Assembly (NCBI GenBank): GCA_025451995.1
Contig: JANWJE010000060.1
Coordinates: 1-24,000, forward strand
DNA from: Parachlamydiaceae bacterium
GTDB taxonomy: Bacteria > Chlamydiota > Chlamydiia > Chlamydiales > Parachlamydiaceae
Direction of reading: 5' to 3'
DNA length: 24,000 nucleotides
Positions 2,036 through 21,512 of the stretch are shown piece by piece. The stretch's first letter is position 1. Every line of letters starts with the position of its first letter. The notes under the pieces are model-generated. The model had not been told where the DNA came from. It ran no database searches and worked only from the letters and a program-made list of their open reading frames with translations. A program made the translations under genes and the position numbers.

Positions 2036-2921
2036 GATAGGGGATTACCCTCACCTCATGAATCAAATCTATCCCTGTTTTTTCTTTCACTTGGGTGCGG
2101 ACATGTTCAATGAGATTAATAATATCATGGGATGTCGCATTTTCAGCGTTGATTAAAAAATTGGCATGAAGAGTTGACACTTCCGCTCCTCCTATTTTTT
2201 CCCCTTTAAGGCCGCTTTTTTCAATTAAAGCGCCGGCATGTCCACAGGAGGGGTTCCTAAAAACACATCCGGCAGATTTTGCATTATAAGGTTGTGTTTT
2301 TTTTCGATATTCAATGATTTCAAATTGTTTATTTCTGGCTTCTTTGTCTTCTATCAGTTTAAAAGCAGCCCCAACGATCGCCCCTTTTTTTTCTTGAAAA
2401 GAGGAAAAGCGATAGCCAAATTGCAGATCGGCTTTAGAAAGTGTCATTAAGTTTCCTTCATGATCGATAAAATCAACAGAAACTAAGCTTTCAGATGCTT
2501 CCTTGCCATTAGCTCCGGCATTCATATAAACCGCCCCGCCGACACTTCCCGGTATTCCTGAGGCGAATTCCAGCCCTGACCATCCTTGTCTTGCACTCTG
2601 CGTTCCAAGAAGAGAAAAACTATATCCGGCGCCTACATGCCAGCAGCCATTCTCTTTATTTATAAATTGAATGCGATTGGCAATGACCATCCCAAAAAAA
2701 CCGCGATCATCAAAAAGAAGATTTGACCCTTTACCCAATATAAAATAGGGGAGATTCTCCTTTTTAGAAAAAAGAATCGCCTCTTGCATCTCTTCAATGG
2801 TACACGCTTCTACAAAAAAAAGAGCCGGCCCACCGATTCCAAAAGTGGTCAATTCTTTTAAAGAGTGGTTCTTCTTAATGTTAATCGGCATGATATAATT
2901 TGTCGACAATTGCATTGACAA
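2022..2921 (-). CDS. murB: UDP-N-acetylenolpyruvoylglucosamine reductase (MurB)
   Basis: Motifs seen: TTFGIGGPA, ILGKGSNLLFDD, GIPGSVGGAVYMNAGANG, SAGCVFRNP, GGAEVSTLHANFLIN. The start is uncertain: track TTG at 2921, alternative ATGs at 2915 and 2891. None has a clear RBS, so translational coupling to nusB is likely. Confidence 0.9.
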   Translation of the reverse strand: MSMQLSTNYIMPINIKKNHSLKELTTFGIGGPALFFVEACTIEEMQEAILFSKKENLPYFILGKGSNLLFDDRGFFGMVIANRIQFINKENGCWHVGAGYSFSLLGTQSARQGWSGLEFASGIPGSVGGAVYMNAGANGKEASESLVSVDFIDHEGNLMTLSKADLQFGYRFSSFQEKKGAIVGAAFKLIEDKEARNKQFEIIEYRKKTQPYNAKSAGCVFRNPSCGHAGALIEKSGLKGEKIGGAEVSTLHANFLINAENATSHDIINLIEHVRTQVKEKTGIDLIHEVRVIPYHGEI

Positions 2922-3285
2922 AGGCAGCTGATTCTGGGGAACTAAATTTCCTTGAAAGCCGGATAGCTTCAGCGATGATCACTTTTGGGGGGACCTCTTT
3001 TTCAAATAGAAGTTCATAGATAGCTAATCTGAGGATCATTTTTGTGACCAATTGAATGCGTTCAATATCGTAACTCGTGGAAACTGAAGTGATTAAAGGG
3101 TCGATCTCCGAAGTTAAACCATCTATTTTTAAAACTTTATCGTATGCGAGTTTCACTTGACTTTTTGGAACTGAAAGCTCATTCATCATCAAGGGAATGA
3201 CAAGTTCTTCTCCAGGGTGAGCGACCTCTTGACTGTACAGCAGTTGTAAAACAATTTCTCTAAATTTTTGGTGGGATAAAGTCAT
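2881..3285 (-). CDS. nusB: Transcription antitermination factor NusB
   Basis: 134 aa. FREIVLQLLYSQE at the N-terminus and LAIYELLF...PPKVIIAEAIRLSRKFSSPESAAFVNAIVDKL at the C-terminus match the NusB pattern. Confidence 0.85.
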   Translation of the reverse strand: MTLSHQKFREIVLQLLYSQEVAHPGEELVIPLMMNELSVPKSQVKLAYDKVLKIDGLTSEIDPLITSVSTSYDIERIQLVTKMILRLAIYELLFEKEVPPKVIIAEAIRLSRKFSSPESAAFVNAIVDKLYHAD

Positions 3286-3318
3286 AGGTTTTCATTAAAT
3301 AAAAAAGCTGTGAAGATT

Positions 3319-3487
3319 ATATACTGCTTCCAGCTGAATCTTGGACTTTTGGGCTGCTTCAAAGCCCCGGGATTGAGAGATCGCAAGAGGCATTGTATTG
3401 GTTTAATACTATGCCTCTTGCGATCTCTCAACCGCGAGAGCTTTCAAGCTAGCCCAAAATTCCAATATTCAACTGGAAGCAGTATAT
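3319..3487. repeat. 169-nt near-perfect hairpin (palindromic) element, copy 1; MITE-like or structured-RNA element
   Basis: Left arm atatactgcttccagctgaat... pairs with right arm ...attcaactggaagcagtatat. The central perfect stem is gagagatcgcaagaggcat / atgcctcttgcgatctctc, around a small loop (ggttt). It is 159/169 identical, with no indels, to 4416..4584. Extra flanking pairing agctgtgaa (3306-3314) / ttcacagct (3504-3512) is seen in this copy only. Confidence 0.85.
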
Positions 3488-3531
3488 TCCATTGGGAATT
3501 TATTTCACAGCTTCTTGATCATCCTAATTGG

Positions 3532-3846
3532 CTAGAGGATGGCGAAAGCAATTACCGAAATGATGCCGATACCAATTCCCCCGGTCATTAATTTAACACC
3601 GGTTTCTGAAAGTTCATTTGCTCCGGAGCCCGGGTGTGTTAAGGGTGCCATAAAAAACGTATGGGCAGCGCCCACAACTACAGCGGCTGTTGCAGGGATT
3701 GTGCCTGCTACAGAGATGAGAAGAGCCACTTTTCTAAATTGAGTCGAACCAAAAGCTGCTTCTACCATTTTACTGGTTATCGCTGTGCCAATGATGAAAG
3801 CCGCTGAATAATTGACAAAATGACTACTTTGAGTAGGACTACACAT
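3532..3846 (-). CDS. Small Gly/Ala-rich integral membrane protein, unknown function
   Basis: Three hydrophobic segments: AAFIIGTAIT, VALLISVAGTIPATAAVVVGAA, LMTGGIGIGIISVIAFAIL. I moved the start to ATG 3846 (MCSPTQ...) because AAGGAG lies 8 nt upstream. The track start is GTG 3855. Confidence 0.55.
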   Translation of the reverse strand: MCSPTQSSHFVNYSAAFIIGTAITSKMVEAAFGSTQFRKVALLISVAGTIPATAAVVVGAAHTFFMAPLTHPGSGANELSETGVKLMTGGIGIGIISVIAFAIL

Positions 3847-3948
3847 TTTATACACTCCTTGTTGATTATGTAATTAAATAATAAATAAATTAAAATTGTA
3901 AATTTAAATTATTTTTTTTAAATTAAATAAAGTTAAATTTTTTGTTAA

Positions 3949-4356
3949 TTAACTGGTTATTGTAATTTCGTGCTTTTTTTTGAGATCTTTATGATAGATA
4001 TAAAGCCTTCTCAATCGGGATTGATCGTCAAATTGAAGGTTAAATTCCATCCAGCCTCTCTTAAAGCAATAAGAGAATAGGGAATTTTGTTTGAACTTTT
4101 CTTTTCTTTTTGCTGATTGAAAGATGTTTTCCGCTTGCTCTCTTGGCATGAAACGGCATAATTTGGCCGGCTTTTGTTGTGGATTGGTGAGGGATCCGAT
4201 CAATTCTTGAAAACTAAAAATGTTCTTTAAGGGAATTCCCAGATCGGATGCAACATCTTCTGGGAGAGAGACAGGATAACGCAATCGAGCAAATAGATAG
4301 ACAAGGGATTTAATATAATTCATAGAGACTGATGATAAATTCAGAATGCTAACCAA
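3949..4356 (-). CDS. Hypothetical protein (no family recognised)
   Basis: 135-aa ORF with coding-like composition (..PVSLPEDVASDLGIPL..RFMPREQAENIF..GWMEFNLQFDD..RLYIYH). The track start is TTG 4356; alternative ATG at 4323 (MNYIKS). No clear RBS for either. Confidence 0.5.
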   Translation of the reverse strand: MVSILNLSSVSMNYIKSLVYLFARLRYPVSLPEDVASDLGIPLKNIFSFQELIGSLTNPQQKPAKLCRFMPREQAENIFQSAKRKEKFKQNSLFSYCFKRGWMEFNLQFDDQSRLRRLYIYHKDLKKKHEITITS

Positions 4357-4415
4357 TTTATCTTAAAAAATCATTTGATAACAAGAAAAAATTGATTCCT
4401 AAATTTTTTTTTGAT

Positions 4416-4584
4416 ATATACTCCTTCCAGCTGAATCTTGGACTTTTGGGTTGCTTCAAAGCCCCGAGGTTGAGAGATCGCAATAGGCATTGTATTGATC
4501 TAATACTATGCCTCTTGCGATCTCTCAACCGCGGGAGCTTTCAAGCTAGCCCAAAATTCCAATATTCAACTGGAAGGAGTATGT
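4416..4584. repeat. 169-nt hairpin element, copy 2 (same orientation as copy 1)
   Basis: Aligned by eye to 3319..3487: 10 substitutions and no indels. It ends 12 nt before the ATG of the exonuclease gene. Confidence 0.85.
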
Positions 4585-4596
4585 GATTTCGAGGTT

Positions 4597-5193
4597 ATGC
4601 AAGCAATTTTTTTAGACACCGAGACGACCGGGTTAGACCCCACCATTCATAGGCTTTTAGAGATTGCCTTTAAAATCGTCGATATCCCATCAGGTTACGA
4701 GAAATTGACTTACCAAGCGGTTGTTAAGCAACCCAAAGAAGTTTGGGAGAAGCGCGATCCAGGAAGTGTTGAAGTCAACGGATTTACATGGGAAAAGGTA
4801 CAGGTAGGCAAAGAAGAATCAATCATTAGAGATGAAATCATTCAAATTTTTACTGATTTACAAATAGAAAGAAAATCTACAGTCTATATTTGTCAAAATC
4901 CAGCCTTTGATCGGAATTTCTTTTCACAATTGATCGATCTTCACACTCAAGAGAAAAACCATTGGCCCTATCATTGGCTGGATTTGGCCTCAATGTATTG
5001 GGCTTTGCAAGTCAAAAGGCATCGCGATTTACATGCTCCTTTCCCAAAAGAGCTCATTTTATCAAAAAATAGCATCGCACAACAATATGGCCTCCCCATT
5101 GAAACAAATCCCCATTCCGCTCTCAATGGGGTTGATCATCTATTATTATGTTATAAGGCAGCTATTGGCTTCGATTCTTTTTTGCAAAATTAG
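4597..5193 (+). CDS. DEDDh-type 3'-5' exonuclease (DnaQ/epsilon-like domain protein)
   Basis: FLDTETTGLDP (Exo I), ICQNPAFDRNF (Exo II) and HSALNGVDHLL (Exo III, His type). Confidence 0.8.
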   Translation: MQAIFLDTETTGLDPTIHRLLEIAFKIVDIPSGYEKLTYQAVVKQPKEVWEKRDPGSVEVNGFTWEKVQVGKEESIIRDEIIQIFTDLQIERKSTVYICQNPAFDRNFFSQLIDLHTQEKNHWPYHWLDLASMYWALQVKRHRDLHAPFPKELILSKNSIAQQYGLPIETNPHSALNGVDHLLLCYKAAIGFDSFLQN

Positions 5194-5766
5194 CAAGGAG
5201 GGAGAATCCTTTCGATTGACCCATTGGTGATGGCAGCAGCTCCATTCTTTGGGAGATAATTTAGAGATATAGGATAAAATCCGGGATTTTTCATTTGCAC
5301 CTTCTTCATGGCCTGGATAAAATGTCATACTGATCACGCCTCCTGGAATAATGAGATGTTCGCCCTTTTGAAGGCTTTGAAGGGTTGTTTCCGATTCTGT
5401 GGTCTTTTGTTTGTCTCCTCCAGGCAAATATCCTAAATTATATACAATTAATTTGATGCTTTCAGGTGAAATCTCTTCTGGAAAGGTTGAATGGCAATGT
5501 TTCTTTAAAAAAATATTCCTGTAAATTTCGGGAGATAGGTTAGCTTGCAAGTAATGTTTTGTGGTTTCAATAGCCTCCGCTTGAATATCAAATCCATATA
5601 CTTTACCCTTGTCAACCGATAAGCTCAATTGACATAATTTTAATGTGTCAAAACCCTTTCCACACGTAGCATCGATGACGCTATCTCCTATGTGGACAAT
5701 GTGAGACCAGTAGTGATGAGCTAAATCTAAATGAGATTGAAAAAGGGAAAATTTTGAACGTGTCAT
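5146..5766 (-). CDS. mnmM: YtqB/MnmM-family SAM-dependent methyltransferase (tRNA mnm5s2U34 methyltransferase family)
   Basis: VIDATCGKGFDT, VYGFDIQAEAIETT, NLGYLPGGDKQKTT and FYPGHEEG align with the Bacillus subtilis YtqB sequence as I recall it. The 3' end overlaps the convergent exonuclease gene by 48 nt. Confidence 0.78.
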   Translation of the reverse strand: MTRSKFSLFQSHLDLAHHYWSHIVHIGDSVIDATCGKGFDTLKLCQLSLSVDKGKVYGFDIQAEAIETTKHYLQANLSPEIYRNIFLKKHCHSTFPEEISPESIKLIVYNLGYLPGGDKQKTTESETTLQSLQKGEHLIIPGGVISMTFYPGHEEGANEKSRILSYISKLSPKEWSCCHHQWVNRKDSPSLLILQKRIEANSCLIT

Positions 5767-5774
5767 TAGACCTC

Positions 5775-5820
5775 TTGCATCATTCGCTTTGTTTGAGAAA
5801 AAGAAAAATTTTTGGATAGG
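5775..5820 (+). repeat. Copy A of a roughly 46-nt dispersed repeat (partner at 21319..21364); possible regulatory sequence in a 63-nt divergent promoter gap
   Basis: ttgcatcattcgctttgtttg is identical over 21 nt in both copies. It is followed by the similar agaaaaagaaaaatttttggatagg versus ctaaaatgagagattttttggatgg. Confidence 0.7.
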
Positions 5821-5829
5821 AGATGATTT

Positions 5830-7299
5830 ATGAAAACTAAAGAAGTATTAATCATAGGGGCTGGGATCGCCGGTTGTGCAGTAGGCTTAGCATTGGTGAA
5901 AAGAGGAATTTCAGTCACTGTTATCAACTCTCCTTTTGATCAAAGATTGTATCATTCATCTTTTATACAATATGATAAACTAGAAGAAAAAGTTAAAAAT
6001 TTACAAAAAGAAAAGCAAGAACAATTAAATTGCACACGAGCTTACGAGCAATTAATGGAGTTAGCTTCACAAAGTGTTGAAGAACTTTTAGATAAAAGCA
6101 ATCTTGTCGAACGGCATGGAAATATAGATATCCATCGCTCATTGCAAGAGCAATTACGAGAACATGCTAAATGTGAGTGGCTTTCCAATTATACGTTAAT
6201 CGAGCTTTTAACCTTGGATCAACATTCCCAAAAAAAAGTGGACCGCTACAAAAAACAGACGTGCATTGGCGCTGTCGTTTATAATCACACCACACAGCGC
6301 ATTGAAAATCTTTTAGCAAAAGAAATCATTTTAGCTACGGGGGGCGCTTCTTCACTTTTCCCTTATTCTACCCAACCTACAACTGCTTGTGGAAGTGGAA
6401 TCGCTATTGGCTACCGAGCAGGGGCTAGATTGCTTAATTTGGAACAAATCCAATTTCAACCCTTAGGACTTTATGGTAAAGATCGCCCGTGTCTTCCTCT
6501 TCCACTAGGTCTTCTTAACGCAGGGGGAAAAATTTTATCGACAAAATCAACGAGTTTAGAAATCGATTGCACCTCTCCTGTACATTTACTTCATCAACTC
6601 CATAGTCAACTCATACAAAACAATAGTGACCATCTCTGGCTCGATTTAACATTTCTCGATCATGAGGTTTTAAAAGATAAATTTCCCTCGTTAGATGCAA
6701 ATTGCCTTTCGTATGGATACAACATCGTTAAAGATCTCCTTCCCATTGTTCCGATTGCAGTTTATACTTGCGGTGGGATCGCCATTGATAAAGTCGCACA
6801 AACGTCAGTCCAAAGATTAAGAGCGATTGGCGAAGTCGCATGCTCCGGCCTGTTTTGGAATTCCCGAGAAGAAGCGATCAGTGTATTGGAGAGTTTAACT
6901 TGGGCTCTTGCTTGTGCGGAAGACATCGTTAAGCAATTAAATAGATTTATCTACTATTTCCCGGAAGTGAGAGATTTAACTGCTCACCTGAATACCTCTT
7001 GTTCAGTTTTGGAGGAGGATTGGAAAACGCTGCGCCAAATCATGTGGATGTATGTCGGCATTCAGCATGATCAATTGCATGTTGAAAGAGGGTGTTCTCT
7101 ACTGGACCAGCTTGCTTATCTTAATACCCCTCAAGATTACCCCTCTTGCTCCATTGAACAAATACAGCTCTATTATGCCATTCAAACAGCTCAGCTCATT
7201 GCACATGCCATCAAAAGCCAGCAGGGGAGCTCGTTTAGTCGAGCTCAACAACCCTTAGCTGCATTTCAAAAAAACCAGCAGGATGCGCTGAGGTTTTAA
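5830..7299 (+). CDS. FAD-dependent oxidoreductase, divergent L-aspartate oxidase (NadB)/fumarate reductase flavoprotein family
   Basis: Rossmann motif VLIIGAGIAGCAVG. ILATGGASSLFPYSTQPTTACGSGIAIGYRAGARLLNLEQIQFQP and PIVPIAVYTCGGIAID...AIGEVACSGL are collinear with E. coli NadB (VLATGGAS..TTNP..GDGIAMAWRAG..NLEFNQFHPT; PIVPAAHYTCGGV..AIGEVSYTGLHGANR). Confidence 0.72.
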   Translation: MKTKEVLIIGAGIAGCAVGLALVKRGISVTVINSPFDQRLYHSSFIQYDKLEEKVKNLQKEKQEQLNCTRAYEQLMELASQSVEELLDKSNLVERHGNIDIHRSLQEQLREHAKCEWLSNYTLIELLTLDQHSQKKVDRYKKQTCIGAVVYNHTTQRIENLLAKEIILATGGASSLFPYSTQPTTACGSGIAIGYRAGARLLNLEQIQFQPLGLYGKDRPCLPLPLGLLNAGGKILSTKSTSLEIDCTSPVHLLHQLHSQLIQNNSDHLWLDLTFLDHEVLKDKFPSLDANCLSYGYNIVKDLLPIVPIAVYTCGGIAIDKVAQTSVQRLRAIGEVACSGLFWNSREEAISVLESLTWALACAEDIVKQLNRFIYYFPEVRDLTAHLNTSCSVLEEDWKTLRQIMWMYVGIQHDQLHVERGCSLLDQLAYLNTPQDYPSCSIEQIQLYYAIQTAQLIAHAIKSQQGSSFSRAQQPLAAFQKNQQDALRF

Positions 7300-7464
7300 C
7301 CCAAATTCAGTGAATGGAGTGGTAAATAATGGATGCAAATCGCTGTGGATAATCAAGTTGTAGTGGCGAAGACAGACTTTGATAAGTCGGATTCGCCACT
7401 ACAACTTGATTAGCCGCTGCGCGATGCATTCAGGATTCGCCACTACATCACTGAACTTGGGTTA
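7297..7464. repeat. 168-nt imperfect palindrome filling the whole gap between two convergent genes (possible bidirectional terminator or MITE)
   Basis: Outer arms ttaacccaaattcagtga / tcactgaacttgggttaa match 17/18. The inner perfect 21-bp stem is taatcaagttgtagtggcgaa (7350-7370) / ttcgccactacaacttgatta (7392-7412), with a 21-nt loop. No sequence similarity to the 3319/4416 element. Confidence 0.75.
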
Positions 7465-8454: not shown

Positions 8455-8620
8455 AAACGCGAGTTTTGGATAAGGAATGCAGCTCATTCGAGAGAGAGTT
8501 TCTTTCAGATTTAAAAATTTTTTCGAAGCCTACATCTATAATATACAGGCGAGAAAAAATTTTCAAAGCTGGAAGAAAAGATCCTCCAAGGAGACCATTC
8601 CTTATCCAAAACTCGCGTTT
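8455..8620. repeat. 166-nt element with perfect 25-bp terminal inverted repeats in a divergent intergenic region
   Basis: aaacgcgagttttggataaggaatg (8455-8479) is the exact reverse complement of cattccttatccaaaactcgcgttt (8596-8620). The AT-rich interior is itself partly palindromic (ctttcagatttaaaaatttt versus aaaattttcaaagctggaag). Confidence 0.75.
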
Positions 8621-19744: not shown

Positions 19745-21313
19745 ATGAAAGTAAAATATTTGCTATTTTTATTTTGTTTAACAGCATTTTTGCCACTTTT
19801 TTCAGAGGGTAATAAAAGGGTATTAATTGGTTCACCTATTCGTCAAAAGCCTGCAATTTTGCATGAATTTCTCGAATCTTTAAAACGTCTTGAACAAGAA
19901 GGATATGAAGCTGATTATTTTTTTATTGATGATAATGATGTAGCTGATTCTACATATGAACTTATTGATTTTGCCGACCAATGTGATAAAAATTGCATCA
20001 TTTTAAATCCCGAAGCACAAGTTGATAGAATTCCTTATACATGCAATGAAAATACACACTACTGGAGCGATGCTAACATTTGGAAAGTTGCAGCTTTTAA
20101 AGATACAATCATAGAACATGCGATTGACAAAGAATATGACTATTTATTTTTAATCGATTCAGACATTGTCCTTCACCCAAGAACTATTGTACAACTTATT
20201 GCAACAGAAAAAGATGTTGTTTCAAATATTTTTTGGACATCTTGGCAAAATGGTGCGATAGAACAACCTCAAGTATGGTTATTTGATGAATATACCCAAT
20301 ATCAGGTAATTCCAGGAAATACTATAACTGATGAAATCAAGCGTGAACAAGTGCTTGCGTTTTATCATCAATTAAGGGTGCCCGGCACATATGAAGTTGG
20401 AGGACTTGGGGCTTGTACATTGATTAGCCGCAATGCTTTAACAAAAGGGGCTCGATTTAAAAAAATTTCAAATCTTACTTTTTGGGGAGAAGATCGTCAT
20501 TTTTGTATCCGCGCAGCAGCTTTGGGGCTTTCTCTTTTTGTAGATACCCATTTTCCGGCTTATCATATCTATCGCGAATCAAATTTAATTGGGGTTCCGG
20601 ATTTTATAGCAAACTTTAAACCTCGTGTGACACTTTCGATGGTTGTAAAAAATGAAGCTGATCGATATTTAAGAGAGGTTCTTAGCCATGCCAAAGAATG
20701 CATTACTGATGCAGTGATCATTGATGATTGTAGCGAGGATAATACAATAGAAGTATGTAGGGAAATTCTAAAAGGAATTCCTTTAAAATTAATCCAAAAC
20801 AATCAATCACTTTTCTCAAATGAAGTTAACCTAAGAAAACTCCAATTCGAAGAAACGCTAAAAACTAATCCGGATTGGATTTTGGTACTAGATGCTGATG
20901 AAATATTTGAAGAAAAATTTAAAAGTGAAATTCATAAATTGATATCTAATAAAAATGCGGAAGTTTATTGCTTTAGATTGTATGATTTTTGGGATCAAAA
21001 CCATTATCGTGAAGATACATATTGGCGTGGACATTTAACATATCGTCCATTTCTATTGCGGAACAAATGCGATATAGAATGGACTTGGCTGGAATCGCCC
21101 CAACATTGTGGACGCCTACCTCAAAATATTATTTCTATTCCATGGATTCAATCTCACATGCGTTTGAAACATTTTGGATGGGCAAAAGAAGAAGATCGAA
21201 TTGCAAAATATCAGCGTTATTTGGAATTAGATCCTGGATTTAAATATGGGTGGAAAGAACAATATGAGTCTATAAATGATAAAGAACCAAATCTTATTGA
21301 GTGGGTTGAATAG
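19745..21313 (+). CDS. Two-domain glycosyltransferase with signal peptide (N-terminal GT-A domain with Anp1/Mnn9-like motifs + C-terminal GT2 domain)
   Basis: Signal peptide MKVKYLLFLFCLTAFLPLFSEG. Domain 1: DYFFIDDND...YLFLIDSDIVLHPRTIVQLIATEKDVVSNIFWTSW...GEDRHFCIRA. Domain 2: VTLSMVVKNEADRYLREVL..AVIIDDCSEDNT..WILVLDADEIFEE, paralogous to the GT2 core of 12328..13578. It starts 6 nt after the wecB stop, with an AAAGGA RBS. Confidence 0.78.
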   Translation: MKVKYLLFLFCLTAFLPLFSEGNKRVLIGSPIRQKPAILHEFLESLKRLEQEGYEADYFFIDDNDVADSTYELIDFADQCDKNCIILNPEAQVDRIPYTCNENTHYWSDANIWKVAAFKDTIIEHAIDKEYDYLFLIDSDIVLHPRTIVQLIATEKDVVSNIFWTSWQNGAIEQPQVWLFDEYTQYQVIPGNTITDEIKREQVLAFYHQLRVPGTYEVGGLGACTLISRNALTKGARFKKISNLTFWGEDRHFCIRAAALGLSLFVDTHFPAYHIYRESNLIGVPDFIANFKPRVTLSMVVKNEADRYLREVLSHAKECITDAVIIDDCSEDNTIEVCREILKGIPLKLIQNNQSLFSNEVNLRKLQFEETLKTNPDWILVLDADEIFEEKFKSEIHKLISNKNAEVYCFRLYDFWDQNHYREDTYWRGHLTYRPFLLRNKCDIEWTWLESPQHCGRLPQNIISIPWIQSHMRLKHFGWAKEEDRIAKYQRYLELDPGFKYGWKEQYESINDKEPNLIEWVE

Positions 21314-21318
21314 ACATT

Positions 21319-21364
21319 TTGCATCATTCGCTTTGTTTGCTAAAATGAGAGATTTTTTGGATGG
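21319..21364 (+). repeat. Copy B of the roughly 46-nt dispersed repeat (partner 5775..5820), at the right edge of the glycosylation island
   Basis: ttgcatcattcgctttgtttg is an identical 21-mer in both copies, and the downstream 25 nt are similar. Copy B begins 6 nt after the glycosyltransferase stop. Confidence 0.7.
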
Positions 21365-21440
21365 ATTTATTGCCAAATTGTGAGAGCATATTGAGTTTAA
21401 TATGGTCGAAAAATTTGGCAATAAAGAGGCCAAAAAGATC
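21352..21440. repeat. Imperfect AT-rich palindrome between the glycosyltransferase and uvrD
   Basis: Perfect 13-bp arms ttattgccaaatt (21367-21379) / aatttggcaataa (21412-21424) with a 32-nt spacer. The arms extend imperfectly (about 22/28) to about 21352 and 21440. This symmetry explains why the plus- and minus-strand pseudo-ORFs here look alike. Confidence 0.6.
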
Positions 21441-21512
21441 CATTTTAACAAGCAAATGGAATGATGCAAGATGTCTAATAAAGAGTGTGATTAAGGTAAA
21501 GCAATAAATTGA

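Follow-up and report, generated by a model that had tools for sequence, protein, structure and literature searches.

The window analysed here is a 24,000-nt stretch of DNA (positions 1 to 24,000 of contig JANWJE010000060.1, GenBank assembly GCA_025451995.1) from a Parachlamydiaceae bacterium of the phylum Chlamydiota, and it carries two directly repeated copies of a 169-nt hairpin element in the region between nusB and an exonuclease gene. Our analysis suggests, with a probability of roughly 0.8, that this element is a palindromic miniature inverted-repeat transposable element (MITE), i.e., a non-autonomous cut-and-paste element that inserts at TA and duplicates the TA. The element shows the attributes by which MITEs are recognised: it is shorter than about 300 bp and non-coding, it ends in terminal inverted repeats (TIRs), and it is present as many dispersed, near-identical copies. 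A filled and an empty target site can also be paired, with moderate support (one site, 82% identity).

Copies, ends and target site

Self-comparison of the window recovered the direct repeat at 3318-3485 and 4415-4582 (95% identical). An exact count over 3319-3487 and 4416-4584, which are 169 nt each, in the same orientation and 1,097 nt apart, gave 159/169 identical positions with 0 indels, precisely as stated in an earlier reading that a model had made from the DNA letters (hereafter the sequence-only reading). The outer arms of copy 1 (3319-3355 and 3451-3487, 37 nt each) are 92% complementary (34/37), and both copies fold into a full-length hairpin on either strand (-109.6 to -121.1 kcal/mol, z = -17.5 to -18.9), with 0/200 shuffles folding as well. 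Arm complementarity and folding thus corroborate the almost full-length hairpin with 34 of 37 outer pairs that had been described. The perfect central inverted repeat that had been reported is likewise present, but the longest one in copy 1 spans 21 bp, not the 19 bp claimed. The two copies and the conserved inner segments of copy 1, namely a clamp in which CAAAGCCCCGGGG(T/A)TGA pairs with TCAACCGCGGGAGCTTTC (short form CAAAGCCCCGGGG / CCGCGGGAGCTTTC) and an AT-rich apex, are located as follows.

3319..3487, + strand: MITE copy 1; element proper at 3322-3484 (TACTGCTTCC...GGAAGCAGTA), with TA at 3320-3321 and 3485-3486
3360..3376, + strand: left half of the conserved clamp, copy 1 (CAAAGCCCCGGGATTGA)
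3396..3408, + strand: conserved AT-rich hairpin apex, copy 1 (TATT-loop-AATA)
3428..3445, + strand: right half of the conserved clamp, copy 1 (TCAACCGCGAGAGCTTTC), which with the left half gives the fixed C·C and G·G mismatches and the bulged A
4416..4584, + strand: MITE copy 2; element proper at 4419-4581, with TA at 4417-4418 and a right flank of TG at 4582-4583 (one substitution)

In the window's own genome (G000, 2.94 Mb in 142 contigs, to which the C numbers below refer), BLAST with copy 1 matched 169 places, 54 of which cover ≥150 nt, most of these at 93-98% identity. A search with a core profile of 86 positions from the central part of the element matched 187 places on most contigs, with orientation distinguishable at most of them. 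The element is therefore not confined to the two sites in the window, a confinement that would have refuted the sequence-only reading; it occupies 169-187 places in this genome and has relatives across the phylum. G000 holds about a dozen subfamilies that have the centre in common and differ in their outer arms and apical stems, along with truncated copies and inter-subfamily chimeras.

Four of the chimeras (C100:14007-14172, C96:33509-33674, C86:10097-10262 and C81:6086-6251) combine a main-family half with a half whose family ends in ATACCGAAACAACTTCAAAATTTGG, the junction being in the shared centre; chimeric elements suggest recombination between subfamilies. Moreover, dozens of G000 contigs start or stop 100-130 nt inside an element (e.g., C82, C130, C68, C15, C140 and C56), and the repeat family largely determines the fragmentation of the assembly, being a major cause of its contig breaks.

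Alignment of 44 full copies with their flanks placed the ends so that the element comprises 163 bp plus a TA on each side. The consensus termini, conserved among the 44 copies, read (A/C)TA followed by TACTGCTTCCAGCTG on the left and CAACTGGAAGCAGTA followed by TA(T/G) on the right (outermost TACTGC...GCAGTA). Where elements abut one another, exactly one TA lies between them. Furthermore, the insertion at C110:55840-56008 has a paralogous uninterrupted site at C110:39248-39376 (82% identity over ~130 nt), to which the joined flanks align gaplessly only with one TA; with zero TA or with TATA, a 2-nt gap appears at the junction. When interrupted genes were restored, the number of junction-spanning open reading frames (ORFs) was 4 under the TA model, 3 under no duplication and 1 under TATA. 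In the two restored ORFs examined, no Pfam domain spans the junction, and a search of relatives with one of them returned no homologue. TA duplication is typical of the IS630/Tc1-mariner superfamily. Of 93 oriented elements flanked by called genes on either side, 3 are located within long ORFs; the others have flanking ORFs that are ++ (23), -- (33), divergent (23) or convergent (11), and their orientation relative to these ORFs is unbiased, as it is within the main family. Together with the chimeric and truncated copies, this is the behaviour of selfish DNA.

Complementarity of the arms

We assessed covariation in a diverged set of 26 elements, all <88% identical, from 12 genomes that span several genera and families. 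Their consensus fold is the full hairpin, with double-sided changes at 53/66 pairs, an extent reached by 0/500 shuffles. Pairing cells amount to 91.9%, compared with 71.3% in shuffles and 34-43% with slid partners, and the covariation score is 0.55 vs 0.17, with 0/500 shuffles reaching 0.55. The proposal of the sequence-only reading that the element is a real repeated structured unit with co-varying arms therefore holds on a much larger set of copies, in which the arms co-vary far beyond chance.

The 44 copies of the young main family give the corresponding picture at short evolutionary distance. Here, unpaired positions were substituted 3.6 times as often as paired ones, and the changes in the stem comprise 35 A:C, 25 G:U and 86 other mismatches (146 single disruptions) against only 16 compensated cells, located at 7 pair positions. 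Variants at outer-arm mismatches are mostly "perfecting" (23/39 vs one third expected), an excess consistent with template switching. As for the two copies in the window, the ten differences between them were listed correctly: the pair 8/162 changes from G:C to C:G in a compensated manner, and positions 36 and 168 yield G·U in copy 2. The change at 8/162 is a subfamily variant common to five copies, and copy 2 carries the subfamily variant ACTCC...GGAGT. What had been taken as repairs in copy 2 are better understood as private pair-breaking mutations of copy 1, at positions 54 and 119, relative to the family consensus, from which copy 1 differs at 3 positions. Position 69 of copy 2 has likewise changed in a way that breaks its pair. 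Because most substitutions within the young family simply break pairs, the window copies show mostly ordinary decay together with one inherited subfamily variant, and the interpretation of their differences as selection on folding is not supported.

The sequence-only reading also regarded the pairing as RNA-type, and the corresponding alternative is that the element codes for, or itself folds into, an RNA whose structure is functional and whose pairing is under selection, be it a small RNA, a mobile regulatory hairpin, or a site targeted by RNase III or RNase E so as to tune neighbouring mRNAs. The very strong covariation along the whole hairpin, the conservation of the clamp and apex across families of the phylum, the 3.6 times slower change of paired positions within the family, and the placement of copy 2 only 12 nt from an ATG are all in line with such a role. 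However, G:U is not enriched over A:C, which is G:U on the opposite strand, either across families (42 vs 44 cells) or within the main family (25 vs 35). One-sided (wobble) changes are rare, and stem changes in the diverged set lead almost always from one Watson-Crick pair to another, transversion pairs included. The elements show no orientation bias relative to flanking genes, a promoter scan found no promoter-like site wholly inside the element, no terminator-like site was found in the elements, and an Rfam search at a permissive threshold returned no family at gathering score, only generic miRNA-precursor hairpins far below it. In addition, the TA flanks, the chimeras and the pile-ups at contig ends fit mobile DNA. 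Given that G:U is no commoner than A:C, that changes preserve Watson-Crick pairs, that orientation is unbiased and that no wholly internal promoter-like site, no terminator-like site and no Rfam match at gathering score was found, the complementarity of the arms is strand-symmetric and of the Watson-Crick type, and therefore points to DNA and not to a strand-specific RNA. The RNA-type pairing is thus contradicted, and we consider a functional RNA improbable.

Several other candidate functions were tried. A promoter reading of TTGAGA-17-TATTGA across the apex was rejected, no site being wholly inside the element; a nearby match merely borrows the terminal TATACT as its second hexamer. A terminator reading was rejected as well, with the T-run preceding the inner hairpin and the A-run following it. 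No coding conservation was detected among the 26 diverged elements, in which the best frame is open in 10/26, and a coding role or an RPE-like in-frame peptide was ruled out because no frame is conserved. ORFs 3310..3591 and 4392..4586 do exist as open frames over the two copies and are not conserved as coding, so that they were rightly called fake.

Mobilisation and the conserved centre

DDE_3 transposases were found in 16/40 relatives searched. One relative, G023, holds an intact IS630-family element that encodes a 353-aa DDE_3 transposase and whose ends read TA followed by TACCGAAGTAAATTCAAAAATTGGC and, at the other side, GCCAATTTTTGAATCACGTTCGGTA followed by TA (TACCGAA..TTCAAAAATTGGC); its TIR type is that of core-bearing MITEs in G015, in G022 and in G000 subfamilies 4 and 5. 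An IS630 element in G006 has ends of TA followed by GTACGGCATGTCAATTAAATTG, which are similar to those of G000 subfamily 3, differing by 4 mismatches over 28 nt; a single shared TA separates this IS630 element from a neighbouring core element. In further IS630 elements of relatives, TA adjoins their ends in the sequence shown. Overall, a match of ends to an autonomous IS630 element (that of G006 or G023) was found for G000 subfamilies 3, 4 and 5 and for the elements of G015 and G022, and none was found for the window's subfamily. At G023:C84:667-1949, an intact IS630-family element is adjoined by a 162-bp MITE that shares its ends and has a non-palindromic interior lacking the clamp, meaning that the same ends can carry different interiors.

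The centre of the element presents a different pattern. Mean pairwise identity along the 26 diverged elements is 0.26 in the flanks, 0.38-0.40 in the outer arms, 0.43 in the apical stem, 0.70 in the middle stem, 0.80 in the apex (TATT-loop-AATA) and 0.87-0.88 in the clamp, values in which the conservation of the centre is partly ascertained because the collections were gathered by similarity to it. The first whole-element BLAST in relatives likewise matched mostly the central part (~positions 17-154), not the ends. The C·C mismatch, the G·G mismatch and the bulged A of the clamp are kept in nearly all of the 26 diverged elements; within the main family these imperfections hardly vary, with few variants that are seldom pair-making, and one G006 family has symmetrised them.

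The clamp is also widely distributed. Allowing ≤1 mismatch, a clamp 16-mer occurs in 82/401 genomes sampled from the phylum, compared with at most one match per strand in any genome for the reversed 16-mer used as a control. The maximum was recorded in G000 (144 matches), with G033 among the highest (80), and the 16-mer was not found in the small-genome Chlamydia-type family (1.0-1.4 Mb; 0/30 genomes). A scan for the two clamp halves, with each prokaryotic species represented by one genome, returned at least 112 stretches. Among the matches listed, most are labelled Chlamydiae (Parachlamydiaceae, Waddliaceae, Rhabdochlamydiaceae, Simkaniaceae and Protochlamydia), and a few are bins labelled Verrucomicrobiae, Acidobacteriota or archaeon. 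From these loci, at least 60 non-redundant elements were obtained; all are TA-flanked, and their ends visibly fall into many types.

Several observations weigh against a MITE moved by IS630-type enzymes. The TA duplication in G000 rests on one 82%-identical paralogous site and on the arrays with a shared TA. Searches of the 142-contig G000 assembly (DDE_3, HTH_Tnp_IS630, and tblastn with the G023 transposase) found no IS630-type transposase, with the qualification that repeats may be unassembled, and G033, another high-copy genome, has no IS630-type DDE_3 transposase in its assembly either. No insertion sequence with the main-family TIR (TACTGCTTCCAGCTGAA) was found in the G000 and relative loci examined. 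Finally, the interior (0.87) is far better conserved than the ends (0.39), the reverse of a typical MITE, and the needs of transposition alone do not explain this conservation of interior over ends. In G000, no left and right TIRs 400-4,000 bp apart were found that could delimit a parent element. A mariner domain search gave no match there, but it matched in no control genome either and is therefore uninformative. Mobilisation by IS630-type enzymes may be inferred on good grounds for the superfamily of elements and is unproven for the window's own subfamily, for which we nonetheless hold it to be the probable route.

In the mechanism that we propose, IS630/Tc1-mariner-type transposases acting in trans would most likely move the MITE. 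The outer ~30 nt of each arm would serve as the TIRs bound by the transposase, and the inner part would consist of the conserved clamp, a freely co-varying stem and the AT-rich apex. At the ends, arm symmetry would follow from the need for both TIRs to fit one transposase; inside, the arms may be kept complementary by template switching (quasipalindrome correction), by selection for a hairpin or cruciform in the DNA, or by both. A separate purifying selection would presumably maintain the clamp and its three fixed imperfections. The MITE appears to have spread recently in G000 and may now be stranded there.

A hairpin of this kind could also belong among REP/RAYT-like or IS200/IS605-like elements, moved as single-stranded DNA by a Y1 (HUH) tyrosine transposase. 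G000 does encode two Y1_Tnp proteins (C37:236-754 and a domain at C20:31821-32144), and strict Watson-Crick pairing combined with fixed mismatches and a bulge is found in hairpins read by such enzymes. On the other hand, TA on both sides and the single TA shared by neighbours indicate TA duplication, the arms are of the same type as IS630 TIRs, the C37 gene is flanked by unrelated REP-like palindromes, and no core element lies near either Y1 gene. No replichore strand pattern was seen in closed relatives (small numbers). Taken together, a Y1 mechanism seems very unlikely. The C37 locus itself (C37:1-1100) comprises an IS200/RAYT-type Y1 gene with a 173-aa frame (Pfam Y1_Tnp, E = 8e-25) and REP-like ACAGGCGTGAGCCTGTGG palindromes on both sides, and the ORF containing the other Y1 domain (C20:31671-32708) is up to 346 aa long.

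A more tentative extension of the MITE interpretation, which we regard as doubtful, is that the clamp and the AT-rich apex together constitute a hairpin or cruciform module with a function of its own. Such a module might be recognised by a protein of the host or of the element when the DNA is extruded or single-stranded, or it might be a two-strand RNA hairpin, and it would have spread through environmental chlamydiae on a dozen or more IS630-type end pairs, as one cargo on many vehicles. If this were true, the MITE would be the delivery vehicle for a selected structure and not plain litter, and the clamp would represent a phylum-specific structured DNA (or RNA) module spread by transposition.

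The nusB-exonuclease locus and comparison with known systems

Four genes surround the two copies in the window.

2881..3285, - strand: nusB, a flanking ancestral gene, outside the element
3532..3855, - strand: p107, 107 aa, a lineage-specific ORFan encoding a small hydrophobic protein
3949..4356, - strand: p135, 135 aa, a conserved protein of unknown function, ancestrally located in synteny with nusB and the exonuclease gene
4597..5193, + strand: RNase T/DEDD-type exonuclease gene, a flanking ancestral gene

Copy 1 precedes the start of nusB by 33 nt; copy 2 is in the spacer between the divergently oriented p135 and exonuclease genes, at distances of 59 nt from the start of the former and 12 nt from the ATG of the latter. 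At a distance of only 12 nt, copy 2 falls in the leader or promoter of the exonuclease gene. The order murB-nusB-p135-exonuclease-methyltransferase is conserved across genera, and homologues of p135 occur in 42/61 genomes of the family. In G001, G002, G006, G013, G020, G057 and G077, which represent six other genera, p135 lies between nusB and the exonuclease gene with the elements absent, and in G006 the gap between p135 and nusB is only ~20 nt. This syntenic order in relatives without the elements shows that p135 is ancestral at the site. By contrast, p107 had no homologue in 40 relatives or among 5.8 billion proteins. An AT-rich stretch at 3856-3948 (15% G+C, with promoter-like hexamers) precedes p107, and p107 with this stretch is, besides copy 1, the only material between nusB and p135 that is absent from relatives, which have a short spacer there.

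These observations bear on the earlier suggestion of a composite mobile cassette, made up of both copies and the enclosed DNA, by which two genes would have arrived between nusB and the exonuclease gene. The copies, as direct repeats spaced 1,097 nt apart, do bracket an AT-rich segment, and p107, the only lineage-specific gene here, is without homologues in the collections searched. The suggestion fails for p135, which is syntenic in the seven other genomes named above. Moreover, the bracketed segment (3488-4415) has no second copy in G000, p107 is single-copy, and each element has its own TA flanks. The cassette is thus effectively refuted. Since p135 is ancestral at this position, each copy represents an insertion event of its own in one of two adjacent spacers, and the genes between the copies are not mobilised by them. 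The candidate gene p107 is not carried by the elements.

The window also contains other palindromic repeats. The family at 21306-21482 (also at 5765-5813) is unrelated in sequence to the 169-mer and is similarly abundant, with 208 BLAST matches at ~141 places, 79 of them covering ≥80% of its length. Palindromes at 8455-8620 (166 nt) and 7297-7464 (168 nt) are multi-copy too, with ~17 and ~5 places, respectively. G000 therefore carries several MITE-like families of nearly equal length.

As a MITE, the element is ordinary, and its practical consequences are those of a family that breaks contigs, creates false ORFs and sits in promoter or leader regions, as it does 12 nt from the exonuclease start codon. 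What we consider new is that one centre is combined with many ends, that the covariation statistics are strand-symmetric and that the clamp has fixed imperfections; the literature searched contained no published description of MITEs or palindromic repeats in Chlamydiae or of the clamp sequence. The architecture is inverted: over no fewer than a dozen end types and many families of the phylum, conservation is much higher in the interior than at the ends. The family also offers a clean natural data set for separating pairing selection from the homogenisation of palindromes by template switching.

Quasipalindrome correction by template switching, described in E. coli, perfects imperfect inverted repeats and yields paired changes without selection. 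It fits the excess of perfecting variants in the chlamydial element; however, it is a mechanism and not an element family, and it cannot explain the three fixed imperfections of the clamp. The ERIC/IRU sequences of enterobacteria are imperfect palindromes of ~127 bp for which an RNA-level role, a transcription-related orientation and compensatory changes have been discussed. Like them, the chlamydial element is an imperfect palindrome conserved across genera beyond neutral expectation, whereas its pairing is strand-symmetric and its orientation unbiased.

The Correia repeat-enclosed elements (CREE/NEMIS) of Neisseria have one TIR type, an IHF site, promoters and RNase III processing, and their transposase is unknown. 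The chlamydial element shares with them a size of ~100-160 bp, hundreds of copies, TA duplication, TATA-type termini, a long hairpin potential and locations near gene starts and ends. It differs in having many TIR types, with sister subfamilies that match IS630, and in showing no promoter-like site wholly inside.

The nearest parallels are other IS630-derived bacterial MITEs, namely RUP (repeat unit of pneumococcus), which is associated with IS630-Spn1, and Nezha of cyanobacteria. Like these, the chlamydial element is short, non-coding, high-copy and mostly intergenic, it inserts at TA and duplicates it, and its ends (here those of sister subfamilies) resemble an IS630-family insertion sequence that would supply the transposase in trans. 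Unlike them, it comes from a genome in whose assembly no IS630 transposase was seen, and its interior is a near-complete palindrome with a phylum-wide clamp carried on many unrelated TIR types.

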